From a virus (Duplodnaviria; Caudoviricetes): 64,000 nucleotides of DNA. The notes beneath the pieces were generated by a model, which worked only from the letters and a program-made list of their open reading frames with translations, was not told the origin of the DNA and did not search any database. The DNA lies in IMG/VR virus record IMGVR_UViG_3300013426_000019, positions 32,001 through 96,000 of that record. One strand, given 5' to 3'. The translations under genes were made by a program, and so were the position numbers. The first letter of the stretch is position 1; the number at the start of each line of letters is the position of its first letter. This document shows, piece by piece, positions 32,083 through 59,549 of the stretch.

Positions 32083-32110
32083 TCTTAGTGACTTAAGGTT
32101 AAGATAACTA

Positions 32111-32132
32111 AGGCCCTTCAAATGAGGGGCCT
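32111..32132 (+). terminator. terminator hairpin
   Basis: AGGCCCTTC-aaat-GAGGGGCCT. Confidence 0.6.
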
Positions 32133-32170
32133 ATTGTTATGGTCACGTAAACAAACTAATTGCTATAGAG

Positions 32171-33670: not shown

Positions 33671-33681
33671 GGTTAACATAA

Positions 33682-40788: not shown

Positions 40789-40803
40789 GAGGAGAAGAGA
40801 TTA

Positions 40804-41265: not shown

Positions 41266-41477
41266 GGTTATATTAGATAATAGAAGATGCAAGTGAGGAG
41301 GTCATACTCTCTGTCTTAAAATAGAGGGGACCTCTTAACCACACTAATTAAATGAATAAATCTTGGACGATATTGCCTTAAGTTAAAGTGAATCAATTAT
41401 GTTAAGTTTGGGAGGCTCTAAGATTAAATAAGGAGCCTCTTAGTTATTAAAGCAATATCATTAGGGAGATAAAAAAA

Positions 41478-44400
41478 GTGGCAATACCAGGCGAAGATAT
41501 ATATAAGTTCAATCCAACATCGCGCCAATATCTAGACAGAGAAGGCTTAATAGAATATACAAGTAAAATAAAGAGCAAGATTGCAGAGGATATTACAGCC
41601 GATCTTGGGAAGAAGATAACAGCGGAATCTGAAGCTCGTGCTGCAGGAGATAGTGCTCTACAACAGAGTATAAACAATCTGCCTGCTAAAGCCTACTCTA
41701 AAATAACAGCTGTATCAGGATCTACAACCACAGCCGTAGAAGCTTCGGGCAAGGATAGTGAATTAAAGTTAAAAGCTGGAAGTAATGTAGCCTTAGGCGT
41801 AGATACAACCAATAAAACAATCACAATCAATGCCACTGATACAAAATATGTCGCAGCCACTACTAGTGCTCCTGGCTTAATGTCTAAAGAGGACAAGGTT
41901 AAGTTAGATGGTATTGCTACTAATGCTAATAAGTACACCTTACTTCCTGCAACATCAGATGCACTAGGCGGTGTAATGGTTCTTGCTAACTCTGGAATAG
42001 AATTAGCTCCAGACGGTAAAATCAGCCTTACTAAAGATAAGTTAGTGCAGATGATAGGTGCCTTCGCAGGAGCAACAGCATCTACAGCAGGACAAGTAGG
42101 TCTTGTACCAGCACCTGCCAAAGGAAGTACAAGCTTATACTTAAAGAGTGATGGTACCTGGGGGACACCTACTAACACAGTATATACCCACCCAAATTCA
42201 GGAGTAAAAGAGGGTACATATAGATCAGTAACAGTTAATGCACAAGGACACGTAATAGAAGGTACTAATCCTACAACACTTGATAAGTATGGTATTACTG
42301 ATGCCAAGATAGTAAGTGGTACTATAACATTAGGTACAGCCACAATTACCCCTCTAACAAGTAGCAGTGTTACGGCCACAAACAATACTGCAAGTTGGGG
42401 AAGTGCTGTAGTAGTAGGCAAGGTAGGAAGCACTGACCTCAAGTTCATAATGCCTGCTAAAGTAGCAGCGTCTATTATAGATGGCACGCTTGCCGATGCG
42501 CAGATACCTAAGCTTGCACTAGGTAAAATAAATTCTGGGGCCATAGCTCTAACAGGCGGTGCTATAGGTACTCAAAATCTCAGCGGCAGTAATAGTGTAT
42601 CTATAAATGTATCAGAAGTTAAAGAAGGATACTTAACTTGGGGAGGTAAGAACCTCATGGGCGGCTTCGGTCCTATAGATGCAGCTATGATCCCAACCTT
42701 AGGGGCTAACAGACTAGAAGCTTGTAAGGCTGCTGGTATTACAGTAGAGTATTCAAGAGATGGAGGTTCTACTTGGACTGATTATGGGCTGAGTGATATA
42801 GAAAAGAGAAGGCTCTTAGGTTCTTATAGTTCTTCTATTAAGGTGGGCAAGGCTACTAATAGCGACCAGTATAAGGCAAATTATCAAGTAAGAGTAACTT
42901 TAGATACATCGAAGTGTGGTGTATATACAAATTTAAATAAATTTGCAATATATATATCCACAGGAGGAATGCCAGGGACTTACTGCACCATAGAGGCCGC
43001 ACCTAAGGCAAGTCCAACAGCTTGGGAAGTTAAAGTTAATAAACAAGCAATATCTGGTTGGAGTGGTTGGAATATAATAAATACACCTACAATTACTACT
43101 ACTAATGGTTCCTCTTATTATGGTTGGATAAGGTTTACCTTTGGGGGCACTGGAGTAAATACCACACATCCTGAACAGGGCTTGAGTATCTTCAATATTC
43201 TGGGCTTCGGGGGTGTAGGATGGGCTACGCCATCTACATGTGCAAAATACGGGGTACCTTATAAGTATTACGCTGTAGATGCTTCTAGTGAGCCTACAAC
43301 AGAGTTCTCGGGACCAGTAAAGGTATCCAACCTCTCAGCTACAACTGTTACCACTACAACTGTCATAGGCTCCTTAGGTAGTTCAGATGGCACCATGAAG
43401 ATCTACGCCGAAAAGAATAATGAGCTTAACTTCGGTGGAAATAATGTTGGAAATAATACCATCTTCTTCGGTTTTAGAGCTAAAGACTCCAAAGCAATAC
43501 CTGCTAAGTTCGTTATGGGGGGAACCTCAGGAACAGCAGAAGTAGTAGCTACTAAGTTCACGGGTGCTCTAAATGGCAATGCAACAACGGCGACAGCCTT
43601 AACCTCTAAAGGTATAGGATCTGAAATACAACCTGTATACTTCGATGCAAACGGTAAACCTGTAGCTATAAGTTATACAATAGAAAAGAGCGTACCTTCA
43701 GGTGCGGTGTTTACGGATACCCACTTCACAACAGGATTAGTAACAAGTAACTCTGCAACGGGAACATCTAATGCAGCTGCTACTGATGGCAATGTATACC
43801 TCAACTTAAAGGATAACTCTACAATCCGTAACTCCCATAAGATTATAGGAAGTGGGGCAACCACCGTAACTAGTGATGCTAGTGGCACAATCACTATTGC
43901 ATCAACTAATACAACATACTCCGCAAGTACCGGAATATCCCTTAGTGGTACTACCTTCAGTAACTCAGGTGTTAGAGCTATCAACCCAGGCTCTGCTAAT
44001 GGTACTATATCAGTTAATACTAATGGTACTGTAGCAGATGTAGCAGTAAAGGGCCTAGGCACAGCCGCCTATGAAGCAAAAACAGCCTTCGCTCTTGCAG
44101 ACCACTCACATAGTAATTACGCCTCCTCAGTTAAAACAACAGGAACAGGAAATGCCATTACAACTATCACTCAGAGTGGAAATGAAATAACTGCAACCAA
44201 AGGCTCTACGTTCTTGACATCACATCAAGATATAAGTGGCAAAGCCAATCTCAGCGGGGCCACCTTTACGGGTGCTGTCGCTATTACGAATACTACAGCC
44301 AGCTCCAGCACAACTACAGGTGCTCTTAGAGTATCAGGAGGTATTGGCGCTCAGGGATCTATTTATGGGGCAAGGGTCTACAATGCAGTTTGGAATGACT

Positions 44401-44804
44401 TAGCAGACTGTATCCCTGTAGATGATGATGTAGAATTAGAACCAGGAAGGTGTTATTGCTTCAATGGCACAAACTACCACAAGTCCAATAAATACTTAGC
44501 AGACGGCATAATAGGAATCCACTCTGATACTTACGGCATGCATATGGGAGCCAAGCAAGGCGTTAAACAAATGGATGTTGCAGTAGCTGGGTTTGTTCTT
44601 GCATATGTAGACCAGGAATATCCAGTAGGTACTCCTCTGACATGTGGGCCAGATGGTATGTTGGTTAAAATAGAGAGAGAAGATAAGATTGAGTATCCTG
44701 AAAAAATTATAGCTACATACTGGAAAAAAGAAACAGAGGAATACTGGGGAAGTGAAACTCAAAAAGTCAAAGTTAATGGTAGAAAGTGGGTTAAGATAAA
44801 GTAA
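41478..44804 (+). CDS. tail fibre protein
   Basis: YLDREGL N-terminus, GLMSKEDKVKLDGI, AGLVPAP-like, VTVNAQGHV, TTGALRVSGGIG, C-terminal YNAVWNDLAD chaperone-type domain. Confidence 0.8.
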   Translation: MAIPGEDIYKFNPTSRQYLDREGLIEYTSKIKSKIAEDITADLGKKITAESEARAAGDSALQQSINNLPAKAYSKITAVSGSTTTAVEASGKDSELKLKAGSNVALGVDTTNKTITINATDTKYVAATTSAPGLMSKEDKVKLDGIATNANKYTLLPATSDALGGVMVLANSGIELAPDGKISLTKDKLVQMIGAFAGATASTAGQVGLVPAPAKGSTSLYLKSDGTWGTPTNTVYTHPNSGVKEGTYRSVTVNAQGHVIEGTNPTTLDKYGITDAKIVSGTITLGTATITPLTSSSVTATNNTASWGSAVVVGKVGSTDLKFIMPAKVAASIIDGTLADAQIPKLALGKINSGAIALTGGAIGTQNLSGSNSVSINVSEVKEGYLTWGGKNLMGGFGPIDAAMIPTLGANRLEACKAAGITVEYSRDGGSTWTDYGLSDIEKRRLLGSYSSSIKVGKATNSDQYKANYQVRVTLDTSKCGVYTNLNKFAIYISTGGMPGTYCTIEAAPKASPTAWEVKVNKQAISGWSGWNIINTPTITTTNGSSYYGWIRFTFGGTGVNTTHPEQGLSIFNILGFGGVGWATPSTCAKYGVPYKYYAVDASSEPTTEFSGPVKVSNLSATTVTTTTVIGSLGSSDGTMKIYAEKNNELNFGGNNVGNNTIFFGFRAKDSKAIPAKFVMGGTSGTAEVVATKFTGALNGNATTATALTSKGIGSEIQPVYFDANGKPVAISYTIEKSVPSGAVFTDTHFTTGLVTSNSATGTSNAAATDGNVYLNLKDNSTIRNSHKIIGSGATTVTSDASGTITIASTNTTYSASTGISLSGTTFSNSGVRAINPGSANGTISVNTNGTVADVAVKGLGTAAYEAKTAFALADHSHSNYASSVKTTGTGNAITTITQSGNEITATKGSTFLTSHQDISGKANLSGATFTGAVAITNTTASSSTTTGALRVSGGIGAQGSIYGARVYNAVWNDLADCIPVDDDVELEPGRCYCFNGTNYHKSNKYLADGIIGIHSDTYGMHMGAKQGVKQMDVAVAGFVLAYVDQEYPVGTPLTCGPDGMLVKIEREDKIEYPEKIIATYWKKETEEYWGSETQKVKVNGRKWVKIK

Positions 44805-44826: not shown

Positions 44827-46337
44827 GTGAACTACTCTTCAGCTAAAGACTGAAGAGCTTCTTTTCAAAGCATCACCACTTTGATTTTCTACTTCGTAGG
44901 ATACTCCACAAATCTCTGAGTTACAAAGATTTATTTCCATATCCTCCATAGACATGACTTCTTGCTGTTCCAGCAATAGAGTTGATTTTAAATCATCAAC
45001 TAGGATTCTAATTGCGTTTTCTTTTAAATTTTGAGCCGCATTTTGATCGCGTATGATTTTTGTTCCACATTCCGGACAAATCCAAACTCGATCTTTTAAT
45101 GTTAGCTCTTTATTAACGTAACCACAATGATTACAAGTTTTACTTGAAGGATAGAACCTATCAGATTTAATCACAAGACAATTATTAAACTTAGCTTTTT
45201 GCTCAAGTCTAGTTACAAATGTATACCAACTAGTATCTACATAATTTTTGGCATTATGACTGAACTTCATCATACCTCGAAGGTTAAGATCTTCAATTCC
45301 AATTACATCGTAATTCTGAACTAATCTTAAAGTTTCTTTCTCCCTGTAATCTTTTCTAATATTAGCAATATGATTCTCAAATCGAGCAAGCTTGATTCTC
45401 GCTTTTTCTCTATTTTTTGAATCTTTTTGTTTTCTTGCTAATCTTCGTTGTAGTCTTGTTAATTTTCTATTGTTTTCTTGTTTGGCTTTTTTGAAGTTTG
45501 GAGCTTCCTCATTTAAATCATTTATATATAACGAATTAGGACTGAAGTCTAAGCCGATTGCTTTATCTAACTTAATCGTTGAATAAACATCTTGTTCTTT
45601 TTCAAACAAGATTGAACACCAGTATTCCCCACAGGCATTTTTGGAGATAGTCATGTGTTTTGGAATAGCTTCTTTGAACCAACTTATCCATTTTTTAGAT
45701 TTATCTTCAGCGTGTCTAAATCTGACTTGCTTAAGTTTGGGAATAGTTACCAGCCTATGATCCCAATCTAGACAATTTTTAGGAAGCATGAAAAGTGAAA
45801 AGCTGTCCTTGTGTTGCTTCTTAGATTTGAATTTTGGAAAACCTACTTTCTTGCCTTTTCTTTGTTTGGTTATAGATTTAAAGAAGTTGCTGAATGCTTG
45901 TTCACAGTTTCTTTGACTTTGAATCAAAGGTTCAGCTATAGCATCACTTAAGAACTCATACTTCTCTTCTCTAAGTTGTTTTGGAAGTTTGCCTTTGAAT
46001 TTGTTTCTTTGATCTTTAGGCAAATCTTTGTTTGCATTGTACCACTCAATATGTTCAGCCAATCTTTCATTATAGAGTAATCTACAACAACCAAACGTTT
46101 TATTTAGGAGAATTTTTTGATTTTCGTCAGGATATAGTCTGATTTTTAAAGACCTATGAATTATACTAATTTTATCAGACATTGATCAAACTCCTTACTA
46201 GTTTGGTTTTTGTTTGGGGATATTTTAGAACTGCAATTCTAGAATATCCTGTTTTTATTTTTATACTATAATTAGTGACCAGGGTTTAAAAGGTTGAAAT
46301 CGCTGCATCCCTTAGACTAAAGACCTAAGAGTTTTAG
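44827..46337 (-). mobile_element. second IS200/IS605-family TnpB-only element
   Basis: Right end (minus strand) AAGAAGCTCTTCAGTCTTTAGCTGAAGAGTAGTTCAC; left-end hairpin CTCTTAGGTCTTTAGTCTAAGGGATG; left boundary approximate. Confidence 0.78.
44839..46182 (-). CDS. tnpB: RNA-guided endonuclease TnpB (close paralog of 27588..28925)
   Basis: Same motifs, RuvC D-E-D intact. Confidence 0.95.
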   Translation of the reverse strand: MSDKISIIHRSLKIRLYPDENQKILLNKTFGCCRLLYNERLAEHIEWYNANKDLPKDQRNKFKGKLPKQLREEKYEFLSDAIAEPLIQSQRNCEQAFSNFFKSITKQRKGKKVGFPKFKSKKQHKDSFSLFMLPKNCLDWDHRLVTIPKLKQVRFRHAEDKSKKWISWFKEAIPKHMTISKNACGEYWCSILFEKEQDVYSTIKLDKAIGLDFSPNSLYINDLNEEAPNFKKAKQENNRKLTRLQRRLARKQKDSKNREKARIKLARFENHIANIRKDYREKETLRLVQNYDVIGIEDLNLRGMMKFSHNAKNYVDTSWYTFVTRLEQKAKFNNCLVIKSDRFYPSSKTCNHCGYVNKELTLKDRVWICPECGTKIIRDQNAAQNLKENAIRILVDDLKSTLLLEQQEVMSMEDMEINLCNSEICGVSYEVENQSGDALKRSSSVFS

Positions 46338-47793: not shown

Positions 47794-48873
47794 ATGTTGA
47801 GAGGATTAGAAAATCTTAAAATAAGATTCAAGTTAAAGCTGCATGCTTCGAGCTTCTTTTTATTTCCTAGAAAAAATAATATTATAACCAATATTATTAA
47901 TCTCCCTAAAAATATAGAAAATTTAAATGCCTCTAGAAATAAAGTTACTATTGAATTAAATTTAAAGTGCAATGCAAATTGTATTTTTTGCAGCAGAGAT
48001 GCTTCGGGGGCTAATAGAGGCTTTTCCTTAAGTTTTGAAGAAGTAAAGAATATTATTGAGACTTCTAAAAGATCAGGCACGCGCATGATAGAATTTACAG
48101 GAGGTGAGGCCCTTTTAGATTCTCTTCTGCCAGATTATTTAGATTACACTCATGAATTGGGAATGCAGACTCAGCTCATTACAAATACCCTTGGATTTAG
48201 CAATCCTATTTTATGCGAGCGACTTTTACCTAAATTAGATTCAATTGAAATGTCTGTACCTTGCGTTAATGAAAATACTTATAATAAATTGACAGGAAAA
48301 AAAGCATATTTTCAATTAATAACTGCTTTAAATAATATTAAAAAATCAGATTGCCAAAAGCAAGTATTTATAATAGCCCTTAAAAGTAATCTTCCTTATT
48401 TACTAGATACCCTGGAATTTTTTAAAGATTTTAGAAATTTAAACTACATATCTATAGTGTATCCTTTATTAGAGGGAAGAATGCATTCTCTTTTTGATGA
48501 ATATCTCTCTTTTTCGGAATTCAGATTTTATATTATACCTTTTTTAAAAAGAGCAAAAGATCTAGGTATTAATATAGTAGGAAGTAAGATACCTCTGTGT
48601 GCTTTTTTTCCTTATGAAAATTTTATTTTTATAAATTCAAAAGAATTTCCTTATAAAAAAAAAGTTATACGTAAATATAAAAATGAACATGTATGCGCTT
48701 ATAGGGAAGAAAATCTACTAGACGATCGAGTAAAATATTTAGAATGTAAAGAATGTATATATAAAGATTCTTGTTTAGGGGTTATAGGCGAGTATAAAAT
48801 TCTTTTTAAAAAAATAGATCCTATTACGCGAGAAAAAAATGAAAATAGATCAAAATATTTTTCAAAATTCTGA
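47794..48873 (+). CDS. radical SAM protein
   Basis: ELNLKCNANCIFCSR, FTGGEALLD, IPLC, CKEC..DSCLGV; start uncertain. Confidence 0.88.
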   Translation: MLRGLENLKIRFKLKLHASSFFLFPRKNNIITNIINLPKNIENLNASRNKVTIELNLKCNANCIFCSRDASGANRGFSLSFEEVKNIIETSKRSGTRMIEFTGGEALLDSLLPDYLDYTHELGMQTQLITNTLGFSNPILCERLLPKLDSIEMSVPCVNENTYNKLTGKKAYFQLITALNNIKKSDCQKQVFIIALKSNLPYLLDTLEFFKDFRNLNYISIVYPLLEGRMHSLFDEYLSFSEFRFYIIPFLKRAKDLGINIVGSKIPLCAFFPYENFIFINSKEFPYKKKVIRKYKNEHVCAYREENLLDDRVKYLECKECIYKDSCLGVIGEYKILFKKIDPITREKNENRSKYFSKF

Positions 48874-49837
48874 TTTTAAATCAATTTACAGCAGGGTGTA
48901 CAATGCTGAGAGTTTAGAAATAGGTACTCTTGAGCTAAATCTCAGGTGCAATCTTTCCTGCATCTTTTGCAGCCGAGAAGCCCATGTTTTTAAAAAAAGT
49001 GAGAATTTAATTCTTCCTGAAATTTTATCTTTTATTGAAAATAAAGACATTATAGTGTTTTGTGGGGGCGAGGCCCTGTTAGATTCTAGACTTCCTTATT
49101 TATTAGAGTATTGTAAAAAAACAGGAAAAAAGACCGCCTTAATATCAAATGGCATTCCTTTTTCAGATCCTAAAATTTGCAAAAGTATTTTAGAAAATTT
49201 GGATTTTCTTACTTTGTCTGTTACCTCCGTAGATTCTAAAATTTATAATTTTATGACGGATTCCAATCAATTTTCTCTTTTTCAAAAAGGTCTTGAAAAT
49301 ATAATGAAGGACCCTCATGAGAAAAATTTACATAAAAGTATAAATATAGTATTATTGAATTCAAATATAAACTATTTGCAAGATATTCCTTTATTTTTCG
49401 AGAAATTAGGAATGCATTCAGTTTTTCTCTACTCTCTTTTATACCCTATATATTTAGGTCGTCTATTAGACTTCCCTCAGGAATTTCCTAATCCAACTTC
49501 GGAAATTTTTCAAAAAAATTTAATGAATTTATGTAATCTTTTAAAGTCAAAAAATAAAATAATTAGATTTGAAAATATGTCGAGCTGTTTTATCCCAGAA
49601 ATAGACGCGGATTTTGTGGATTCCGAAGAAAATTACGGCAAACACTCTTTTTATTTAAAAAAAATTAATAATAAATTGATATCCTACACTAGAGATAGTA
49701 TTGTTGGAACTTATAAAAAGTCTTTTCGGTGTGAGTCCTGTTTGAAAAAAAATTATTGCAGAGGTTTACCGGAAGTAGCAAAAATATTATTTGAAAATAA
49801 AATTACCCCCTTCAAGAGGGGCAATAAGGAAAAATAA
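48839..49837 (+). CDS. radical SAM protein (paralog of 47794..48873)
   Basis: ELNLRCNLSCIFCSR, CGGEALLD, CESC..NYCRGL. Confidence 0.88.
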   Translation: MKIDQNIFQNSDFKSIYSRVYNAESLEIGTLELNLRCNLSCIFCSREAHVFKKSENLILPEILSFIENKDIIVFCGGEALLDSRLPYLLEYCKKTGKKTALISNGIPFSDPKICKSILENLDFLTLSVTSVDSKIYNFMTDSNQFSLFQKGLENIMKDPHEKNLHKSINIVLLNSNINYLQDIPLFFEKLGMHSVFLYSLLYPIYLGRLLDFPQEFPNPTSEIFQKNLMNLCNLLKSKNKIIRFENMSSCFIPEIDADFVDSEENYGKHSFYLKKINNKLISYTRDSIVGTYKKSFRCESCLKKNYCRGLPEVAKILFENKITPFKRGNKEK

Positions 49838-51109
49838 ATGTATAGTTTAAAACTAGGTTCTGCTTGCAACAATGACTGCATTCATTGTAATGTAAATTCA
49901 GAAGATAATATTGAAAATTTAATTTTTGAGGAAATTCGGGAGATAGTTGATGATATTCCTCAAGGGGAAATAATTTGTCTAGAAGGAGGGGAACCAACTC
50001 TAAGAGAAGACTTTTTTGATATAGTAGAGTATTGTGGTTTAAAAGGGCATAAAATAATACTCCAAACCAACGGCACGGGCCTCACGGAAGAAATCACCCA
50101 AAAAATAAAGCCTTTTGTAAAAAAAGTATATATATCTATATATTCTTCTAATTCTTATATTCATAATTTAATTACTAGAACTCATAATGAAAAAAGTACA
50201 TTTGAAAAAACAATACAAGCCTTAAAAAATCTCTATAGGTATTCTATTCCATTCAATACGCAAACAGTTATTTCTAAAATTAATATGGCTTCTTTATATG
50301 ATACTTTCTCCTTTATTCAAAAAGAATGCCCTGGTATTTTTATGTGTCTCACTTATCCTCATCCTATTAAAAATATTTGGGAAAATAAAATTTTAACATG
50401 TGTTTCTTTTAAGGAATTGAAGCCCTTTATTCAGCCTTGCTTCAGAGATTTCGGTCCTTTTTTAATAGTAGAGTCAATTCCTCCCTGTTATATATTTCCT
50501 TTTTATCAAAATATAGGATATAATTTAGACGCTATTATTAAAAATAAACTTTTAAAAAACGAGAATTACTATAAATATGGGGATGTAGAAAAATATCCAG
50601 TTAAAAACTTTAATTTTAAAAGAAAGGGCCCTAAATGTGTGGACTGCTTTTATTTTGAGGAATGTCTAGGTGTTTGGAAAGAATATGTAGATTTGTATAG
50701 ATTACATTTCGATCTTTTTCCTATAGATATAAAAACCCCCTGGAATATTTCTTTGGATAATTTTCTACAACTTGAGATAGATGATTTTTCTTATGAGGAT
50801 ATAAAAAAGATCCTAGAAAATAATAAAAATTATAAGCCTGTTTTAATTAAGATTAAAGATTTTTCAAAAAATCTTTCAATTAAATTGAATAGGGCAAAAG
50901 CAATATCTCAGATAGTAGACAATTATTCTTTCCCAATATCTTTTTTAGATATCCCTAAATGTTATTTAGAGCCCTTTACTGGAGTAATCAACACTTATCA
51001 AAAAAATTTTGAAAAAAATTCAGACAAATGTAAAAATTGCAATTTTAGAAAGGAGTGCTTTGGCTTTGATTTCAAATTAATTGATTCCAAGATGAAGGAT
51101 TGGAAATGA
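49838..51109 (+). CDS. radical SAM protein (paralog of 10285..11865)
   Basis: CNNDCIHC, GGEPT, QTNGTG, LTYPHP, IPPCY, KRKGPKC..C...ECLGVWKEY. Confidence 0.9.
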   Translation: MYSLKLGSACNNDCIHCNVNSEDNIENLIFEEIREIVDDIPQGEIICLEGGEPTLREDFFDIVEYCGLKGHKIILQTNGTGLTEEITQKIKPFVKKVYISIYSSNSYIHNLITRTHNEKSTFEKTIQALKNLYRYSIPFNTQTVISKINMASLYDTFSFIQKECPGIFMCLTYPHPIKNIWENKILTCVSFKELKPFIQPCFRDFGPFLIVESIPPCYIFPFYQNIGYNLDAIIKNKLLKNENYYKYGDVEKYPVKNFNFKRKGPKCVDCFYFEECLGVWKEYVDLYRLHFDLFPIDIKTPWNISLDNFLQLEIDDFSYEDIKKILENNKNYKPVLIKIKDFSKNLSIKLNRAKAISQIVDNYSFPISFLDIPKCYLEPFTGVINTYQKNFEKNSDKCKNCNFRKECFGFDFKLIDSKMKDWK

Positions 51110-51134
51110 AGCTATCTTAAAATAGGAGTGAAAA

Positions 51135-51824
51135 ATGCTAAGAATTTCTTTAGAAAAAGGTGAGGAAGGGTTTGAAATCTTAAAAAATTCTTTAATTGAG
51201 GACAGAGAATCTTTTTTAGAAAATAATTTTATAAAAAATAGAAAAGATATAATCACATTGATTCTTTTGGATAGAAATGTTATTTTTGAAAGGGTTCCTG
51301 AAAAAAGTAGCTCTTTTATAAAAGATAATATTTTCTGGATTAAAGCTCAGTACCCCGCTGTGCTTTCTTCTTCCCTTGCAGGAAGATATGAAAAGCCTTC
51401 TTTATTTCCAAAAGGAGAATTTCTTATAAGTTATTTTCGCTCTTTCACCTCTGAATCCCTTGCTAAAAGGGACTGGATTATTAATGAAATTCCTTATGCT
51501 CTTATTAATTCTATTTTAAAATTAAAAGGAAATGAGGAGTATAAAAATATTCAGTTAAGGGGGCATACAGTTCTCTATAAAAATAAAAAAGTTTTAGCAG
51601 AAGAAACTTTTTATAATTCTTCTTCAGTATTTTTTGATTGTCAGATTCATCTAGATTGGAATCAGGAAAGTTGGGATATTTATGATAAATATTGTAGTGA
51701 ATTTAAAAGTGCATATGAAAAGGGAAATCTTTTATCTTTATTAAATATTTCCAGAGAAGAATTTTTAAAAGTTTTTATATCCGAATTGGAAAATTTGGAA
51801 TATTTTATTAAAATAATGGAGTGA
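51135..51824 (+). CDS. hypothetical protein, possibly remote lipoate/biotin-ligase fold
   Basis: GHTVLYKNKKVLAE weakly resembles the NDIL.NGKK.G motif. Confidence 0.35.
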   Translation: MLRISLEKGEEGFEILKNSLIEDRESFLENNFIKNRKDIITLILLDRNVIFERVPEKSSSFIKDNIFWIKAQYPAVLSSSLAGRYEKPSLFPKGEFLISYFRSFTSESLAKRDWIINEIPYALINSILKLKGNEEYKNIQLRGHTVLYKNKKVLAEETFYNSSSVFFDCQIHLDWNQESWDIYDKYCSEFKSAYEKGNLLSLLNISREEFLKVFISELENLEYFIKIME

Positions 51825-51834
51825 ATTAAATTTT

Positions 51835-52107
51835 ATGGATGAAATTTGTACACGATGCGGAAAAAAGATAGAAAATACAAAAATAGAAATTAATTTAGGC
51901 TTTTCTGTTTTTAAAAGAGAAAATAATGTTTGGGGATTGTCTTTGGATCTTAATCAAAAATCTGTTGAAATTTTATGTGCAAATTGTTTTGATAATTTTT
52001 GCAATACTTTATTTATTAAAAATAATAATGAATTTTTAAAGAATTTTAATACATCTAAAAAAAATAAAGATCCTGTTGAAATTGACGGAAATGTGGACTA
52101 TAACTAG
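51835..52107 (+). CDS. small zinc-finger protein
   Basis: CTRCGKK...LCANCFD. Confidence 0.7.
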   Translation: MDEICTRCGKKIENTKIEINLGFSVFKRENNVWGLSLDLNQKSVEILCANCFDNFCNTLFIKNNNEFLKNFNTSKKNKDPVEIDGNVDYN

Positions 52108-52210: not shown

Positions 52211-53077
52211 ATGTTTGAATTTTTAACAGACACAGGATCTGAAATAGATAATTACCTTAGAGAATCCTTAAATATAGGCCTTCTCAGGACGGGTGTTACT
52301 TTAAAAACAAGAGAGATCTTTTCAGATGCGAATTGGGATAATGTAAATGCTTTTGAATTTTTCAAAGATTTAGAAGAGGGCGTAGTAAGCATATATCAGC
52401 CCGCAATGAATTACTGGAAAGATATTGTAGAAGAGATATTTAAGAAGGGTAAAGACGTATTATTTTTAGGTATGTCCTCCAGATTTACAGGGGGAATCAA
52501 AAATCTTAACATTATTAAAATGCTTCTGAGTCCTATTTATCCTGACAGAAAATTAGTAATTTTGGACTCAGGGCTTGTTGCAGGAGGCGAGAAATGTCTA
52601 GTATTAGCTGTAGCAGAGTATTTAAAGGATAAAAGAGAAGAAGATGTAGAAAAAATAGCCTCTGAAATAAAAATCAAGTTTTTAGGCAGAGGAATAACTT
52701 ATTGGATTTTAGATTCTTTAAAATTCTATATGAAGGCTAATAGAGGTTTAGATTCTTTTAAAGATTTGAATATTCCTAAAGGTTATCCTATAATAAAATC
52801 TGAGAATGGCAGCTTTTTTTTAAAAGGATTATTTAATTCAAAAGAAGATGCTTTGGAAGCACTAATAGGGGATATAAAACTCTCATCTATAGAGACTTTG
52901 GAGTTTACTTACTCTCCGGACTGGGATTTAAAAAAGATAAGAGAAGTAGTAAATCAGCTGGAATCTAATTTAAATATTATTATTAATCATAATATTACTT
53001 ATCAGAGCCCGTCAGTTACTGCTGTAACAGGGCCTTATTCTTATAGTATAGGAGTTTTAAAAAATGTTACTTTTTAA
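52211..53077 (+). CDS. DegV family fatty-acid-binding protein (FakB-like)
   Basis: LTDTGS, QP, MSSRFTG, VILDS, SPSVTAVTGP; 288 aa. Confidence 0.8.
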   Translation: MFEFLTDTGSEIDNYLRESLNIGLLRTGVTLKTREIFSDANWDNVNAFEFFKDLEEGVVSIYQPAMNYWKDIVEEIFKKGKDVLFLGMSSRFTGGIKNLNIIKMLLSPIYPDRKLVILDSGLVAGGEKCLVLAVAEYLKDKREEDVEKIASEIKIKFLGRGITYWILDSLKFYMKANRGLDSFKDLNIPKGYPIIKSENGSFFLKGLFNSKEDALEALIGDIKLSSIETLEFTYSPDWDLKKIREVVNQLESNLNIIINHNITYQSPSVTAVTGPYSYSIGVLKNVTF

Positions 53078-53154: not shown

Positions 53155-53161
53155 ACTAATT
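53155..53161 (+). promoter_or_regulatory. ACTAATT putative phage late-promoter motif upstream of the Cys-repeat operon
   Basis: Same heptamer precedes structural genes (16007, 21612, 30717, 32155, 41343; minus strand 15546, 20412, 23910). Confidence 0.55.
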
Positions 53162-53241
53162 ATATATAATAAGTCAACATAATATTTCTTATGTAAATAA
53201 TTAATTTTGGTAATTGACATCTAATTTAGGAAGGATATAAT

Positions 53242-53517
53242 ATGAAGGATACAAATATTGAATTGTCTGCAGAAGACAGACAAGATATAAATCTGTCTTT
53301 AGAGGTTATTAATACCGCAGAATTTGAATTGAGGAATATATCGGGATTTGAGAATCTCAAAGAAGAAGAAGTACGAAATATTTACCAAGGGGCTTGTGAT
53401 GCCCTGATAGAAGGGAGAGTAATGCTACATCTTCTTCGCCAAGAATTTGTAAAAAAATATAATATTCCATATGATTTTATTTCCATCGATGGTCATATTT
53501 ATTTACAAGAGGATTAA
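53242..53517 (+). CDS. CXXX-repeat modification system accessory protein-like
   Basis: ~90 aa, LSAEDRQDI...IYQ...KKYN...IYL pattern and position recall the small TIGR04116-type partner. Confidence 0.45.
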   Translation: MKDTNIELSAEDRQDINLSLEVINTAEFELRNISGFENLKEEEVRNIYQGACDALIEGRVMLHLLRQEFVKKYNIPYDFISIDGHIYLQED

Positions 53518-53520
53518 ATA

Positions 53521-54537
53521 ATGGCGGTTATCCCTGACAATCAAAATTTTTTATCTACAGACAAGAATACCCCCCTAAAGGAAGCACAATTAAAATCTTT
53601 ACTAGCACAAGCTATTACAGCGAGAGCTAAAAGAGGTTGGACTACTTCTGAAGACAGTATCAGTCTCTATACTCATAGGGTGTCCCTTTCTCAGATGAAT
53701 GATATGTCAAACGTTATTATTGACAAGTCATCCGATCAGCATATTCCTTATAGTAGTTCACCTTATCCTAAAGCAATTTCCTCAGGGTCGAAAGTTTTTG
53801 CTAAAGCTACAGATTATAATGAATTGCAACAAGCAGTAAATGATATATCTAATAATATTATGTGCGAAGGTTGTAGTAATACTTGTTATGCAAGCTGTGC
53901 AAATTCTTGTGCTTCAAGTTGCACTAGTACTTGTGTTAATTTATGTACAGATAATTGTGGCTCTTCCTGCACAGACACTTGTAACAGCATAAGTTGTAAT
54001 AATGCAAATTGTTCTGCGGCTAATTGTTCTTCGGTAGCTTGTACAAAAACCAACTGCTCCTCAGGAAGTTGTTCTTTCGGTGCTTGTAATGCCTCGGGAT
54101 GTGATAAAGGCTCTTGCGAGAATGGTTCATGTCATCAAAGTTCTTGTGAGAGATCAGGATGCAACTATGATAGTTGTGATTCTACTTCCTGTGATTCTGG
54201 TTCTTGTGATACAGGCTCTTGTAGTCAGAAGACATGCAGCGATTCCGGGTGTAGTAAAGATACATGTGGCAAGGCCACCTGTTCTAGTGGGGCCTGCAAC
54301 GGTGGTGAATGCAATTCAGGAGCTTGCGCGAGAAGTGGCTGCGACGCTTCTAATTGTTCCACGGATAGTTGTGATGACGCAGACTGCAATGCGGACCCTT
54401 GCAGCAATAATACATGCAATAGCACGGGCTGCAGCCACGATAGCTGCTCTAATAACACTTGTGACTCTGATGATTGTAGCACTGCCACTTGTTACAGCGG
54501 GGATTGCAATGGTGGATCTATGAATAAATCACATTAA
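53521..54537 (+). CDS. Cys-repeat protein (CXXX then CXXXX), putative radical SAM substrate
   Basis: ~114-aa non-repeat N-terminus, then 46 Cys with strict periodicity. Confidence 0.85.
   Translation: MAVIPDNQNFLSTDKNTPLKEAQLKSLLAQAITARAKRGWTTSEDSISLYTHRVSLSQMNDMSNVIIDKSSDQHIPYSSSPYPKAISSGSKVFAKATDYNELQQAVNDISNNIMCEGCSNTCYASCANSCASSCTSTCVNLCTDNCGSSCTDTCNSISCNNANCSAANCSSVACTKTNCSSGSCSFGACNASGCDKGSCENGSCHQSSCERSGCNYDSCDSTSCDSGSCDTGSCSQKTCSDSGCSKDTCGKATCSSGACNGGECNSGACARSGCDASNCSTDSCDDADCNADPCSNNTCNSTGCSHDSCSNNTCDSDDCSTATCYSGDCNGGSMNKSH
53863..54509 (+). repeat. Cys-periodic coding repeat (12-nt then 15-nt period)
   Basis: 9 CXXX intervals followed by 35 CXXXX intervals. Confidence 0.9.
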
Positions 54538-54551
54538 AGGAGATTTTTAAA

Positions 54552-54746
54552 ATGGGTATATGCTCAGGATGCTGGGGAAATTGCAATAAGGGCTGTTCTG
54601 GTGATTGTAATAATAAATGTATTTCCACTTGCACCGGATCTTGTGTAGGATCATGTTCAGGATTATGTGAAAATACATGTACAGATACCTGTATTAATAC
54701 TTCTAAAAATGATACTCGTATTACTTCTTTTGTCGTAAAATTTTAA
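54552..54746 (+). CDS. CXXX-repeat peptide (12 Cys), putative RiPP precursor
   Basis: MGICSGCWGNCNKGCSGDC...; AAGGAG RBS; directly upstream of radical SAM gene. Confidence 0.85.
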   Translation: MGICSGCWGNCNKGCSGDCNNKCISTCTGSCVGSCSGLCENTCTDTCINTSKNDTRITSFVVKF

Positions 54747-54755
54747 GGGGTTTAA

Positions 54756-55940
54756 ATGATTAAAAAATGGAATGCCTTTAGTGGTTATAATATAACAATC
54801 AATACTACTGAAGATTGTAATTTAAGATGCAAATATTGTTACGAGATATATAAAAAACCTGGAAATATAGATCTTAATACAGCTAAGAAATTTATAGATT
54901 TTATTTTCGATGATCCCGACCCTACCAATATAAAAGATGAAAGGCCAGATGCTTATGATGGATTGATTTTAGACTTAATTGGGGGTGACGCCCTAATGAA
55001 TGCTGATATTTTAGATGATATTTTTAAATATGTAAATACTCGTTGGGCTTTAAGTGATAAATTCAAAAAACATGGTTGGAGATCCTCAATATCTTCAAAT
55101 GGTACGCTATTCTACAAAAAGGAAGTTCGAGATTTTTGTGAAAAATGGCAAGACCACTTAAGTTTAGGGGTGTCAATTGATGGTTGTCCCACTATTCATA
55201 ATAAGAATAGAATATTTTGTGATGGTAGGGGGAGTATGTCTACTATTCTAGAGTGGTGGCCCTGGTATAGAAAAATATTCCCCGTAAATTCTTTAGAGAC
55301 AAAGGCAACTTGCAATAAAGACTCTATTCCTTATTTATATGAATCTTTGAAATGGATGCATGAGGAATTAGGGTTAAGATGGATTAATCAGAATTTTATT
55401 GGGGAAAACATGGATCTCATCGAAAAGGATCTTCAAGAATTAGACAAACAACTTGAAAAGTGCTGTGATTATTGTTTAAAACATAAAGAAGATCTTTATT
55501 GGTCAATTCTAGGAGAGAGATTCCAATTTCCACGCAATGAAAAATATGATTCTACCTTTGCTACTGCAAGTTGTGGAGCAGGACAGATGCCCGCTTGTTC
55601 TATTAAAGGTGATTTATATCCTTGTTTTAGATGGCTGCCTCAATCTCAGGGGGATAAATTTGCAAAATATAAAATTGGAAATATCCATGGTAAATTAAAT
55701 AAAAACCTCTTTAAGGAGGTCAGAACTTTAGCAAGGGCTTCTAATTGCACAAAGGAAAATAAATGCTTAGAATGTGAGTATTCTTCAGCTTGTGTTTGGT
55801 GTGTAGCTGGCTCTTTCGCAGAGTATGATGATTTTATTAGACAAACTCATATATGTGAGGTAACAAAACTCCAATGTAAATGGGCAAAAATTTATGTAGA
55901 GAAATTAAAGGAGAGTTTAAATGAAAATACAAAAGTTTGA
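54756..55940 (+). CDS. radical SAM/SPASM peptide maturase (CXXX-repeat target type)
   Basis: TEDCNLRCKYCY, IGGD, SSNGT, SIDG..HNKNR, CGAG, YPCFR, CLEC...CVWC. Confidence 0.88.
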   Translation: MIKKWNAFSGYNITINTTEDCNLRCKYCYEIYKKPGNIDLNTAKKFIDFIFDDPDPTNIKDERPDAYDGLILDLIGGDALMNADILDDIFKYVNTRWALSDKFKKHGWRSSISSNGTLFYKKEVRDFCEKWQDHLSLGVSIDGCPTIHNKNRIFCDGRGSMSTILEWWPWYRKIFPVNSLETKATCNKDSIPYLYESLKWMHEELGLRWINQNFIGENMDLIEKDLQELDKQLEKCCDYCLKHKEDLYWSILGERFQFPRNEKYDSTFATASCGAGQMPACSIKGDLYPCFRWLPQSQGDKFAKYKIGNIHGKLNKNLFKEVRTLARASNCTKENKCLECEYSSACVWCVAGSFAEYDDFIRQTHICEVTKLQCKWAKIYVEKLKESLNENTKV

Positions 55941-56325
55941 GGGAATGATAGGGCCTTGCGGAATATTTGATGATAGTCTAGGTATGACTAATGATGAAGT
56001 TCCTGTTTCCTTAGAAAATAATGTTTATAGTGACGCTATGAACTTAGATGGATGTAATTATACCGCCCTATTATTAGATTCTTTAGATTTAAATCTCCTT
56101 AGACCTAATTTAAGATCCTACATAAGGAATGCTATTTTAAATAAGGCGCAGACTTCTTTTGTATATGGTGAACTCTTACGCCCTTTCAATAAAGCCTGTA
56201 AAGAACTGGGGATTGAATGTAACCCTCACATTACCCCTGATGGAATATTTATTAATATGGAAGATTATTTTACTTGGCAGAAATTATATTTCCATCATCC
56301 AACAAAAAGTGAAAAGAGAGCTTAA
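55921..56325 (+). CDS. hypothetical protein in Cys-repeat operon
   Basis: Overlapping ORF, AGGAG RBS. Confidence 0.6.
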   Translation: MKIQKFEGMIGPCGIFDDSLGMTNDEVPVSLENNVYSDAMNLDGCNYTALLLDSLDLNLLRPNLRSYIRNAILNKAQTSFVYGELLRPFNKACKELGIECNPHITPDGIFINMEDYFTWQKLYFHHPTKSEKRA

Positions 56326-56333
56326 ATTAAAAT

Positions 56334-56621
56334 ATGGAAGAAATAAGTGAAAAAAAAGAAATTACTAAAGAGTATCTAATATTTTTGTATTCAAAATTAA
56401 AAAAAGAATTGAATGAAGCTTTTCAAAGTTTCCAGGAAAATTTAAAAGCTGAAGATATAAGAGAATTAAATACTAAAGTAGCAGACATACAATCCAGGGC
56501 TCGATTATTAATTATGTTTATAATTTCTAATTGTGAATTAGATAATTTATCTACCACTATAGCTAATGTTAAAAAATGGCAAGAGGAAATTACTTGTGAG
56601 CAGCTATTTTCTCAGAATTAA
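56334..56621 (+). CDS. hypothetical protein
   Basis: ORF closing the AT-rich operon. Confidence 0.55.
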   Translation: MEEISEKKEITKEYLIFLYSKLKKELNEAFQSFQENLKAEDIRELNTKVADIQSRARLLIMFIISNCELDNLSTTIANVKKWQEEITCEQLFSQN

Positions 56622-56667
56622 TTTTTAATGTTTTAGAGGAGCTTTGGAGCTCCTCTTTATATTATAT

Positions 56668-57489
56668 ATGGAGGCCGTTGGTATGCATTACTTAACATCC
56701 ATTCTCGACAAGCTCAAAGAGCATGAAGTACAACTCAATAACATAAACGTCTTTCCTATAGCAGACAAGGATACCGGAACCAACCTCTTCAAGACCTTAA
56801 ATGTAGAGGTAGATGCCACTAACTTCAGAGACTTCCTATTCAAGTTATCTGACAAGGTTCTTTACTCAGCCAGGGGCTCCAGTGGCAACATACTAGCACT
56901 ATACCTCCTTGGCCTCAAGGAGAACTACAATGATAACATAGTAGAGACCTGTAGGGGCGCAGCCCAGTTTACATGGAACACGATGTATGAGCCTCAAGAG
57001 GGTACGATACTCACAGCCATGAAGGCCTATCCAACAATCTTTGAAGGCCCTAAACAATACATAGGAGACTTCTACAACAACGTTTTAGATTGCCTTATGA
57101 GAGGACCAGACTTACTACCTATTTTAAAGCAGCACAACACAATAGACTCAGGAACCTTAGGGTTTACATACATCTTACAAGGACTATATGAGGCCATAGT
57201 AGGCGAATCCTTACCAACACCAGAACTCACTTTATCCCCTGTAGATACCTCAATCACACCGGAAGAGAAGACTTACTGTGTAGAGTTATTACTAGAGGGC
57301 AACCACAAGGAGGAGCTAGGATTCCTTAAAGATTATGGTGATGAGTTGATAATCCTCACCTTAAACAACGAAGCCACCAAGCTCCACATACACACAGACA
57401 ATTATCAAGAGGTTATACGTAGAGTAGAAGGGGTGGCACAAATTAAGGCCACAAAGGTAGACAACATGAAGGAACAAGGCAAGGCTTGA
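56668..57489 (+). CDS. DAK2-domain fatty acid kinase catalytic subunit (FakA-like, short)
   Basis: LNNINVFPIADKDTGTNL, ARGSSGNIL, EGTILT, DSG, YCVE, KLHIHT; start 56668 or 56683. Confidence 0.88.
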   Translation: MEAVGMHYLTSILDKLKEHEVQLNNINVFPIADKDTGTNLFKTLNVEVDATNFRDFLFKLSDKVLYSARGSSGNILALYLLGLKENYNDNIVETCRGAAQFTWNTMYEPQEGTILTAMKAYPTIFEGPKQYIGDFYNNVLDCLMRGPDLLPILKQHNTIDSGTLGFTYILQGLYEAIVGESLPTPELTLSPVDTSITPEEKTYCVELLLEGNHKEELGFLKDYGDELIILTLNNEATKLHIHTDNYQEVIRRVEGVAQIKATKVDNMKEQGKA

Positions 57490-57534
57490 CAATTTTAAGG
57501 TGTTGTAATATAATTATATTAGAGAGGTGATATA

Positions 57535-58658: not shown

Positions 58659-59549
58659 TTGCGTAAATTCAGACCTCCTAAACCTCCAAGAGTCAACCAT
58701 AAACCTGACACTTCCTTAATACAGCACGGCACAAGTAAGGAGGAGTTAGATCTCCACAAGACTATCAATCTCCTAATACCAGGGATTAGAACCATTAAGG
58801 GTGACAGGGCAGTATTAGAGGGTAGGGAGATAGACATATATATACCCAAATATAGATTAGGAGTAGAGTACGACGGCCTAGCATATCACTCAGAAGGCAA
58901 GACCCAAGACTATCATCTCTGGAAGACTATAACAGCAGCCAAGAAGAGGGTGAGGATTATACACATATGGTCAGACCTGTGGACCAATCGAAGAGCTCAA
59001 GTTGTAGACTTCTTAAGTAAGGTATTAGGCAGGACAACGATATTACCTTACAGCGAGTGTACTATTGGTGAAGTAAGTGCAGCTGAGGGTAGTAAGTTCC
59101 TCAATGCAACACACATCACGGGCTGTGATCCAAGAGCACGGGTATTTATAGGTATATATTACAAGAACTATCTAATAACAGTGGCATCATTTACAAGGGA
59201 TGAGACAAGCTGGACATATCTTCAGAAGGCGGATAGAGCCACATGTTGTATAGAGGACGACTTAGCACACATATTTGAGTATATAAGGGCTCACTACAAT
59301 GTTGTGACCTTTAGAGCTACTATAGATAGGTCCCTATTTGATGGCAGTGATTTAAGGCAACTTGGTTTTAGAGTAACAGAGTGTACCCCTCCCAATGCCC
59401 ATTGGACTCAGAATTACAAGTCTCGAGTACTACAGGAGGGATACACAGATGATCAGATGATAAGCAAGGGATATCATAGATTCTATGATTGTGGTGAACT
59501 TATATTAGAGTGGTGTCCTATTATTCAAAGAAGTAATCCCAAGTCTTAG
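58659..59549 (+). CDS. Vsr/PD-(D/E)XK-like homing endonuclease homolog
   Basis: EIDIYIPKYRLGVEYDGLAYHS, IIHIWSDLW, YDCG; homologous to C-terminal half of 18340..20406. Confidence 0.7.
   Translation: MRKFRPPKPPRVNHKPDTSLIQHGTSKEELDLHKTINLLIPGIRTIKGDRAVLEGREIDIYIPKYRLGVEYDGLAYHSEGKTQDYHLWKTITAAKKRVRIIHIWSDLWTNRRAQVVDFLSKVLGRTTILPYSECTIGEVSAAEGSKFLNATHITGCDPRARVFIGIYYKNYLITVASFTRDETSWTYLQKADRATCCIEDDLAHIFEYIRAHYNVVTFRATIDRSLFDGSDLRQLGFRVTECTPPNAHWTQNYKSRVLQEGYTDDQMISKGYHRFYDCGELILEWCPIIQRSNPKS

Follow-up and report, generated by a model that had tools for sequence, protein, structure and literature searches.

A phage gene cassette pairing CX3/CX4 cysteine-repeat proteins with a radical SAM/SPASM enzyme of the TIGR04115 type

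What would a phage do with a protein in which 35 cysteine intervals in a row have exactly the same length, and whose gene lies just ahead of one for a radical S-adenosylmethionine (SAM) enzyme? This question is raised by positions 53242-56621 of a 64,000-base stretch of viral DNA, called the window below, which corresponds to bases 32001-96000 of the 158,768-base IMG/VR virus record IMGVR_UViG_3300013426_000019 (estimated to be 74% complete). The region comprises six closely spaced genes on the plus strand that apparently form an operon. Two of them encode cysteine-repeat proteins, of 338 and 64 amino acids, and another encodes a radical SAM enzyme with a SPASM domain. With moderate confidence, we read the region as a phage-borne variant of CXXX-repeat-type radical SAM maturation, in which a single leader-independent maturase would cross-link both substrates and the product would be a component of the virion.

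The original prediction, made from the sequence without database searches, had described a 46-cysteine protein switching from CX3 to CX4 spacing (CXn denoting a cysteine followed by n other residues before the next one). Our recount agreed with it exactly. The 338-amino-acid protein (53521-54537) harbors 46 cysteines between residues 115 and 329, separated by one gap of 2 residues, nine gaps of 3 and then 35 unbroken gaps of 4. Similarly, the 64-amino-acid peptide (54552-54746) contains, as claimed, 12 cysteines between residues 4 and 47, with one gap of 2 and ten of 3, followed by a 17-residue cysteine-free tail. When the 215 residues of the large array were shuffled 20,000 times, the longest run of equal gaps was 2.6 on average and 8 at most, compared to the 35 observed. 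The parts that carry the argument are the following.

53521 to 53862, plus strand: N-terminal, nonrepetitive and roughly three-helix domain (N-domain, residues 1-114 of the 338-amino-acid protein), defined by conservation and AlphaFold2 (AF2) modeling
53863 to 53982, plus strand: CX2 and nine CX3 units, the "head" (Cys115 to Cys154), defined by cysteine gaps and conservation
53980 to 54507, plus strand: 35 CX4 units, the "body" (Cys154 to Cys329), a hypervariable pentad array, defined by cysteine gaps and comparison with the related locus L015
54552 to 54746, plus strand: 64-amino-acid putative second substrate, CX2 and ten CX3 units and then the cysteine-free C-terminal tail, with a ribosome binding site (RBS) AAGGAG upstream and orthologues in relatives
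54756 to 55940, plus strand: radical SAM/SPASM maturase of 394 amino acids, with TIGR04115 as its best family and with the cluster motifs

The spacers consist mostly of small, polar residues (48 Ser, 22 Asn, 20 Asp, 19 Gly, 19 Thr and 17 Ala). The claim that the units share no identity at the nucleotide level was essentially right, since Tandem Repeats Finder and direct comparison of the units revealed only slight repeat identity. Tandem Repeats Finder reported no more than two 15-nucleotide arrays of 2.2 to 2.4 copies in the large gene and one 12-nucleotide array of 2.8 copies in the small one. Among the 35 units of 15 nucleotides, the mean pairwise identity was 0.44 (0.34 for the spacers alone versus 0.255 expected from composition), no two units were identical, and serine was encoded by all six of its codons. 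Across 266 pentads from the window and its relatives, no spacer position was strongly conserved; 89% of the pentads contained Ser or Thr and 36% contained Asp or Glu, proline was nearly absent, and hydrophobic residues were rare. In about 70% of the CX3 units, Ser or Thr directly preceded the next cysteine.

What is kept and what is free to change can be seen by comparison with L015, whose maturase is 95% identical to that of the window. The nonsynonymous divergence (pN) between the two was 0.033 in the N-domain and 0.009 to 0.056 in neighboring genes. In the CX3 head, pN was 0.011, with 97% amino acid identity and saturated synonymous sites, while the CX4 spacers had a pN of 0.25 and 64% amino acid identity. 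Two indels of 10 residues, exactly two pentads apiece, separate the large proteins of the window and L015, and 46 of 46 cysteine positions are identical. This retention of every cysteine despite the divergence of the spacers is in good agreement with the earlier proposal that spacing is under selection, rather than being a product of recent slippage. Because it is frozen relative to L015, the CX3 head acts like a specific recognition or structural element. Because its spacers diverge and whole pentads are gained or lost while the cysteines stay, the CX4 body acts like a module of variable length for which nothing but the period counts.

To place the cassette among its relatives, we used eleven loci fetched by exact protein identity (L009, L010, L011, L013, L015, L016, L017, L018, L062, L063, and L064) and IMG/VR loci found by an alignment query, a query with the single maturase having returned none. 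In all eleven fetched loci, the maturase adjoins a cysteine-repeat gene, and the cassette comprises an accessory protein, an N-domain/cysteine-repeat protein and the maturase; small proteins usually follow downstream, and in many cases there is a small cysteine peptide as well. Among the IMG/VR loci with at least 38% identity (n = 10), a cysteine-repeat open reading frame (ORF) on the same strand lay within 2.4 kb in eight of the nine that were testable. At 25 to 29% identity (L029-L034), five of six had a cysteine-repeat gene, and radical SAM loci of lower identity were mostly without one. By its synteny with cysteine-repeat genes across the relatives examined, the adjacent radical SAM/SPASM enzyme is a dedicated partner, as had been predicted, and the pairing of enzyme and putative substrate is well supported by co-occurrence.

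Wherever the maturases are at least 62% identical, the large protein follows the same design, with a CX3 head of 6 to 10 units (found in L009, L018, L062, and L064) and then a long CX4 body of about 15 to 72 units. The cysteines in the large protein and the CX4 units were counted as follows.

Window and L015: 46 cysteines, 35 CX4 units
L009: 34 cysteines, 15 CX4 units, with breaks
L062: 62 cysteines, 53 CX4 units
L064: 78 cysteines, 68 CX4 units
L018: 83 cysteines, 72 CX4 units
L063 (partial): at least 24 cysteines, at least 23 CX4 units

A CX3 peptide of 64 to 67 amino acids with the motif C-I-N-[TS]-S and a tail was present in all intact regions examined (L015, L009/L010, L018, L062, and L063; L064 is outside this count). 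The small peptide, with cysteines from residue 4 and a C-terminal tail conserved in its orthologues, thus proved to be a real conserved gene. In more distant relatives (48 to 58% identity), CX3 units are mixed with occasional CX2, CX4 and CX5 units, and the CX4 body is, on the sequences compared, a derived feature of one subclade. The N-domain could be aligned, and is conserved, across all relatives.

Some relatives also point to where the product might be used. In L031, a tail-fiber protein (phrog_2631, 2.7e-32) encoded beside a related radical SAM gene ends in a CX3 repeat that matches phrog_6085, and in L016 a single protein combines the N-domain, a CX3 repeat and three CHB_HEX_C/Fn3_assoc Ig-like domains. 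The L017 cassette lies between genes for a 1,147-amino-acid collagen-like protein and the GP7 baseplate protein, and that of L002 lies among tail-fiber-like genes. Because relatives fuse the repeat to fiber or Ig-like domains or adjoin fiber and baseplate genes, a structural role is suggested, and the product probably belongs to the virion, for instance as a fiber or stalk.

The maturase itself was assigned by profile scans. In the NCBIfam ranking, TIGR04115 came first with 217.6 bits (E = 3.4e-64) over model positions 3 to 354 of 359, which is 71 bits ahead of the next family, PapB (NF047865, 146.2 bits); QhpD (TIGR03906) followed with 76.1 bits, and all others were lower. The enzyme also matched PF04055 and PF13353 in Pfam and phrog_1802 (5.3e-38). 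Cysteines C21, C25, and C28 of the radical SAM motif and the SPASM residues C273...G285-x4-C290, C337-x2-C340-x5-C346-x2-C349 and C367 were invariant among 18 homologues, and C331 and C353 were conserved in at least 90% of them. The only sequence match in the Protein Data Bank (PDB) was CteB (5WGG), with residues 15 to 372 of the query aligned to residues 101 to 440 of the chain. Since the CX3CX2C motif starts at residue 21 and the CteB alignment starts at residue 101, past the recognition element (RRE) that CteB carries for ribosomally synthesized and posttranslationally modified peptides (RiPPs), the phage enzyme has no N-terminal RRE. This would fit substrates whose cysteines begin at residue 4 or lie behind a folded domain. 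The family is abundant: 526 proteins were related to the maturase at E ≤ 1e-10, about 120 of them at approximately 50% identity or closer, many on contigs of 180 to 390 kb. About 66 GenBank phage records, mainly of Erwinia and Salmonella jumbo phages, matched at less than 30% identity.

The CXXX-repeat system to which TIGR04115 belongs is defined bioinformatically in NCBIfam/TIGRFAMs (targets TIGR04114/04117 and PF27846; radical SAM enzyme TIGR04115; TIGR04119, "CXXX_matur"; small partner TIGR04116), and its canonical setting is bacterial, in a locus of the Bacteroidota type that includes TatA and TatC. The phage cassette shares with it the best-matching enzyme family, a cysteine at every fourth residue, the adjacency of substrate and enzyme, and a candidate partner of about 90 amino acids beside them. 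Unlike the canonical system, it has no TIGR04119 or TIGR04116 detectable in the record and no apparent twin-arginine translocation (TAT) signal; it stands in a jumbo phage, and its larger substrate is a two-domain protein of 338 amino acids whose main array is CX4 instead of CX3. The 64-amino-acid peptide scored under the cut-offs of both target families (TIGR04117, 19.4 bits with a cut-off of 50; TIGR04114, 17.6 bits with a cut-off of 20). The canonical set can be seen in L001 (MT837480), with a TAT-signal CXXX-repeat protein, TIGR04115 (630 bits), TIGR04119 (235 bits) and TIGR04116 (105 bits). This 6.8-kb record is labeled Bacteriophage sp., but it looks bacterial and not phage, with TatA/TatC-like ORFs as judged from their sequence.

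Several characterized enzymes offer further comparisons. In published accounts of the PapB/PapA pair (freyrasin), the SPASM enzyme is described as acting on tandem CX3 motifs to give a string of small thioether rings (PMC9413430, PMC12373016). However, PapB depends on an acidic acceptor at position +4 from the cysteine and on a leader docked on its RRE, whereas in the phage CX3 units the +4 residue is the next cysteine and there is neither a leader nor an N-terminal RRE; moreover, the 146.2 bits of the phage enzyme lie below the NF047865 cut-off of 340. A 2026 study showed that CrpC of Methanococcus voltae installs thioethers on the whole 28.8-kDa cysteine-repeat protein CrpA, which, like the 338-amino-acid protein, is large, with a C-terminal cysteine-repeat region and an N-terminal recognition part, and which has a paralogous second protein in its cluster (PMC13692751). 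The two differ in enzyme family (TIGR04463, for which the phage enzyme scored only 29 bits), in repeat (17 residues with C-X-X-Q/D in CrpA), in the RRE that CrpC possesses and in the archaeal cellular setting. QhpD, which matures the gamma subunit QhpC of quinohemoprotein amine dehydrogenase and thus acts on a protein subunit, and CteB, which acts on SCIFF, both make intramolecular cysteine thioethers of the kind proposed here, but only three or four of them, at irregular positions and with Asp/Glu (QhpD) or Thr (CteB) as acceptors; CteB, unlike the phage enzyme, carries an N-terminal RRE. Finally, CefA/CefB (NF038107, Cys-every-fifth) resembles the phage pair in the CX4 periodicity of the substrate, as far as the family name tells and as a matter of pattern only. 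The phage enzyme reached 47.7 bits against the CefB cut-off of 600, and the match was limited to the generic N-terminal radical SAM core (residues 12 to 166). The families involved are already catalogued as NCBIfam, Pfam and PHROG entries. New are the uninterrupted pentad array, which in relatives reaches 72 units, the conserved switch from CX3 to CX4 with opposite evolutionary regimes, the extra free CX3 peptide with its C-terminal tail and a cassette in which the canonical partners were not found.

We thus hypothesize that the two leaderless proteins whose genes lie immediately upstream are the substrates of a single SPASM radical SAM enzyme without an RRE of its own. From the enzyme family we infer thioether or metal-thiolate chemistry, and serial thioether cross-linking in particular, because the characterized relatives PapB, QhpD and CteB make cysteine thioethers and CrpC does so on a whole protein. 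By analogy with these four enzymes, many of the regularly spaced cysteines would most likely be linked to nearby residues. The acceptor rule must differ from that of PapB, since acidic residues are too sparse and position +4 of the CX3 units is a cysteine; for most links, Ser, Thr or another small residue would be the likely acceptor in preference to Asp or Glu. Such staples would turn a hydrophilic chain into a stiff rod that does not respond to redox state. The 91-amino-acid alpha-hairpin protein encoded by the first gene, and perhaps the 134- and 95-amino-acid proteins encoded by the last two, might stand in for the RRE as chaperones or adaptors. The product would be a fiber or stalk anchored by the N-domain, with the length and surface of the CX4 part varying between phage strains. 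We count in favor of this proposal that no signal peptide was apparent at the N terminus of the 338-amino-acid protein (judged by eye only, no predictor having been run), unlike the TAT-signal CXXX protein of L001.

Tentatively, the idea can be carried further. The CX4 array may be an undescribed protein rod, a "thioether ladder," in which one leader-independent radical SAM enzyme starts at the CX3 head and runs along the chain. Such a rod would bear about 45 staples in the window protein, with relatives reaching about 80, and it would be hydrophilic as well as resistant to proteases and redox changes. Its length would be tuned by the gain or loss of whole pentads while its surface diversifies fast, and the free 64-amino-acid CX3 peptide would co-assemble with it as a further component. 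Jumbo phages of anaerobes might use this rod as a fiber or stalk instead of disulfide- or collagen-type stabilization.

Several results weigh against our proposal of a cross-linked virion component. The 217.6 bits of the maturase are under the curated TIGR04115 cut-off of 350, compared to 630 bits for the canonical L001 enzyme and 300.6 bits for that of the phage locus L002. No match to TIGR04119 was found at E ≤ 0.01 in the 158,768-base record (which is about 74% complete), and the TIGR04116 hidden Markov model had no match in the whole record or in nine homologues of the 91-amino-acid protein. PapB-type Cys-X3-Asp chemistry cannot apply as such, given the low share of CX4 units with Asp or Glu and the cysteine at position +4 of the CX3 units. 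AF2 gave no confident fold for the cysteine repeat, with a predicted local distance difference test score (pLDDT) of about 30 there and 40.7 for the whole 338-amino-acid protein, and this protein had no match to PHROG or Pfam structural families. The cassettes of the CX4 subclade adjoin replication-type genes or radical SAM islands, and since they are not inside tail genes, the virion role rests on the more distant relatives. As to the chemistry, our literature search found no biochemical study of the CXXX-repeat system or TIGR04115, nor any description of such a phage system.

Some of these points would suit other explanations. The matured cysteine-repeat protein could be an intracellular or envelope-directed effector, involved in superinfection exclusion or host manipulation, and would then parallel the bacterial HXS defense, in which matured effectors act on phage DNA entry (PMC13128918). 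The same phage indeed carries a His-Xaa-Ser repeat protein with six radical SAM genes, the CX4-subclade cassette is not embedded in tail genes, and fast-evolving CX4 spacers would suit a conflict protein. We nevertheless consider an effector unlikely, as no radical SAM enzyme of the window reaches the HxsB or HxsC cut-offs, inspection of the large protein by eye (no predictor having been run) showed neither a signal peptide nor a membrane segment, and in relatives the repeat is fused to tail-fiber and Ig-like domains or encoded among fiber and baseplate genes. Somewhat less probable still is that the arrays bind metal or iron-sulfur clusters without being cross-linked, as a metallothionein-like protein or as a scaffold or reservoir for the 11 radical SAM enzymes of the phage, the adjacent enzyme having another or a minor role. 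Clusters are not known to be bound by strictly periodic CX3 or CX4 arrays, the characterized members of the clade to which the enzyme belongs cross-link cysteines, the enzyme is syntenic with the repeat across hundreds of contigs, no cysteine desulfurase was found in the 158,768-base record, and fusion to fiber domains is ill suited to a reservoir. Nevertheless, 11 radical SAM domains imply a high iron-sulfur demand, the spacers are small, polar and almost free of hydrophobic residues, and AF2 predicts no fold in the absence of a cofactor. Additionally, in L008 an N-domain homologue is followed by the start of an ORF with an 11-residue N-terminal motif that we take to be cysteine-desulfurase-like.

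The original prediction had suggested that the two registers may be read by different enzymes. In that case, the maturase at 54756-55940 would take one and a radical SAM enzyme encoded upstream (47794-51109) the other. Three more radical SAM genes do lie 2 to 6 kb upstream, in the window as in L015, the registers are under very different constraints, and the L009 phage has two maturase paralogues that are 49% identical. This second maturase, however, appears to have its own separate cysteine-rich cassette. The upstream enzymes are MoaA-, HxsC- or AhbD-like, with their closest paralogues in the His-repeat island. The window contains a single TIGR04115-type enzyme, the next best radical SAM protein being 26% identical over a partial match. 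L018, L062, and L064 have both registers and only one radical SAM gene, the maturase, on their contigs of 6 to 14 kb, and distant relatives interleave CX2, CX3, CX4 and CX5 units in one array beside one maturase. A division of labor between two enzymes is therefore unsupported and, in our estimate, improbable. We give even less credence to the view that the cysteines either remain free or become paired in disulfides once outside the cell, with the radical SAM gene being a neighbor without any substrate relationship. Our literature searches yielded no biochemical evidence for any TIGR04115 member, and cysteine-rich extracellular repeats held by disulfides are common in biology. But co-occurrence with the maturase is near universal within the clade and lost outside it, and translationally tight operon spacing ties the genes together. 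Furthermore, low-GC gut-type phages of what are probably anaerobes would be put together in a cytoplasm that is reducing and thus prevents disulfide formation (the habitat and the host are presumed here).

If the cross-linking is true, no other single substrate of a RiPP-type radical SAM enzyme would come close in extent of modification to the 338-amino-acid protein and its relatives, with their 45 to 80 sites or so per polypeptide; they would also be a rare case of such chemistry in a structural protein of a virus instead of a small natural product. The cassette raises the questions of how a SPASM enzyme without an RRE recognizes a periodic substrate and keeps track of it, whether the substrate by itself determines the ring size (CX3 or CX4), and what the actual activity of TIGR04115 is, a database family for which we found no paper. 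Experiments are feasible because the family is abundant and because cultured Erwinia and Salmonella jumbo phages bear a related cassette. Peptide engineering could also profit from an enzyme able to staple simple C-x-x-x(-x) repeats independently of a leader.

The rest of the operon comprises the following features.

53158 to 53241, plus strand: AT-rich intergenic leader carrying elements that resemble a promoter and, ahead of the first gene, an RBS (GGAAGG), of putative function by consensus match
53242 to 53517, plus strand: 91-amino-acid accessory protein, with homologues that accompany the cassette and an AF2 model
55921 to 56325, plus strand: 134-amino-acid protein, kept after the maturase in the CX4 subclade
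56334 to 56621, plus strand: 95-amino-acid protein, the last operon gene, with genes for 72 to 95 amino acids at the same place in relatives
56635 to 56656, plus strand: terminator-like hairpin with a 9-bp stem, by pattern match only, directly followed by an exact TTATATTATATA motif (56657-56668)

For the 91-amino-acid protein, AF2 predicted with high confidence (pLDDT 95.2) an N-terminal strand, two long helices forming a hairpin and a C-terminal beta-hairpin. The shapes nearest to this model were viral hypothetical clusters (template modeling [TM] score, 0.73 to 0.81) and an FlgN-like one (0.66); a Foldseek search of the PDB gave nothing at E ≤ 0.001, and no NCBIfam family matched. A winged helix of the PqqD/RRE type was considered and set aside, as the topology of the model is strand, helix, helix, hairpin instead. 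Homologues of 84 to 100 amino acids occur in L008, L009, L011, L013, L015, L016, L017, L018, L062, and L064, mostly directly upstream of the cysteine-repeat gene, and the closer ones bear the motif KKYNIPYxF...G.I. In hhalign, the family aligned in register with a true TIGR04116 member, at an E value (0.17) that is not significant, and the two are alike in size and gene position. A predicted complex of the 91-amino-acid protein with the N-domain (residues 1 to 130; score 0.10, mark 0.32) gave no verdict and was used neither way. We regard this protein as a candidate chaperone or adaptor. The 134-amino-acid protein has orthologues of 126 to 138 amino acids in L015, L009/L010, L018, L062, L063, and L064 (27% identity to the L018 copy), and the scans, including the Atlas shape search, gave no family, feature or fold lead for it. 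The 95-amino-acid protein had no family match in profile scans; its counterparts are found in L015, L009, L018, L062, L063, and L064.

No NCBIfam model matched the 338-amino-acid protein at E ≤ 0.01. Its N-domain was modeled by AF2 with helices at residues 21 to 37, 56 to 67 and 96 to 110 (pLDDT 50 to 73). The Atlas shape search returned viral clusters sharing this shape, with PF27846 in 53% of the members, and also viral clusters of 101 to 113 amino acids that resemble the N-domain. An exhaustive phmmer search found it as a stand-alone protein of 125 amino acids, P0002 (34% identity), while the matches P0001 and P0003 were discounted, their scores being inflated by many weak internal-repeat matches. 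A word-based homology search with the N-domain gave no matches. BLASTP comparisons of the N-domain with the His-repeat protein of the window and with the L002 cysteine protein were not significant, and a likeness of motif (h-x-A-x-x-h-N-x-L...) is an impression only. For the CX4 body, we also considered a pentapeptide-repeat (Rfr-type) beta-helix; the small residues two positions before each cysteine fit this fold, but there was no Pfam match and no AF2 support, and the idea remains speculation.

The relatives yielded further observations. On the 609-base contig L008, a homologue of the 91-amino-acid protein is followed by a protein of 125 amino acids that is the N-domain alone, without any cysteine repeat. 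The second maturase of the L009/L010 phage (L009 10413-11612, minus strand) is 49% identical to that of the window, and its small genes match in size those of the L011 set (L011 8203-9848), including a 121-amino-acid protein with 23 cysteines. This phage thus appears to carry two separate cassettes. In Erwinia phage vB_EamM_Huxley (L003, NC_031127), positions 2119-2508 and 2518-2910 (plus strand) hold two unannotated ORFs of 129 to 130 amino acids with CX3/CX2 cysteine repeats and good RBSs. They are paralogous to the annotated gp175 and lie upstream of the radical SAM genes gp173 and gp172, while two ORFs annotated on the other strand, gp177 and gp176, are rich in P, E and Q and look like shadow ORFs. 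A cultured and tractable phage therefore has a related cassette that is probably misannotated. More generally, gene callers place V/I/L-rich or opposite-strand ORFs over the cysteine-repeat genes and omit the small peptide (L064 1590-3119, L063 3-374, and L015 8784-8985). Since these genes are often misframed in this way, their products are probably missing from phage proteome searches, and cysteine-repeat proteins are probably underrepresented in protein databases and proteomics searches.

The record length and the completeness estimate imply a phage genome of about 200 kb. Within the window, fiber-like genes span 30781-44804 and include tail-fiber repeats and a 2,368-amino-acid protein that matches phrog_14959. 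A higher-GC fiber-like block (28984-44804) is flanked by TnpB/IS605 OrfB genes in opposite orientation, at 27588-28925 (plus strand) and 44839-46182 (minus strand). The operon follows about 8 kb past the fiber-like genes, with a TnpB gene and a radical SAM island in between, and a homing endonuclease gene is found at 58659-59549. Directly around the operon lie genes for a DegV (FakB-like) protein (52211-53077) and for a Dak2/FakA-middle-domain protein (56644-57489). As they flank the cassette in L015 and are absent around it in the other relatives, they are not core to it.

A 164-nucleotide gap after the DegV gene precedes the operon. It contains a variant of the recurrent TTATATTATATA motif of the phage (53161-53172) and a perfect TTGACA-16-TATAAT match to the sigma-70 consensus (12/12) at 53214-53241, which ends one base before the ATG of the 91-amino-acid gene. 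This match may be a coincidence or may drive a downstream start. A second perfect 12/12 consensus (TTGACA-16/17-TATAAT) is found at 57486-57514, again directly before a gene.

Ten of the 11 radical SAM domains of the record are in the window, grouped in two islands, and the cysteine-repeat operon is part of the second, between the DegV and Dak2/FakA-like genes. The closest paralogue of the upstream trio (47794-51109) is found in the other, His-repeat island (46% identity). Both islands indeed share a paralogous set of three genes (10243-12799 and 49838-52107), encoding a radical SAM enzyme (46% identity), a protein of about 200 amino acids and a small CxxC zinc-ribbon-like protein (41% identity). 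Other radical SAM paralogue pairs in the window are 7745/9009 (28%) and 47794/48839 (32%). The His-repeat island (region 1506-13832) encodes a protein of 246 amino acids with His-Xaa-(Ser/Asp/Asn) tracts at both ends; the genes behind it are one of the Fe-S aldo/keto-reductase-like kind and six for radical SAM enzymes (3295, 4379, 5812, 7745, 9009, and 10243). None of these six reached an NCBIfam cut-off, their HxsB and HxsC matches amounting to only 60 to 75 bits. In bacteria, the HXS system is a published antiphage defense in which the entry of phage DNA is blocked by an effector with repeats that radical SAM enzymes have matured (PMC13128918). Here, an HxS-type protein is borne by a phage.

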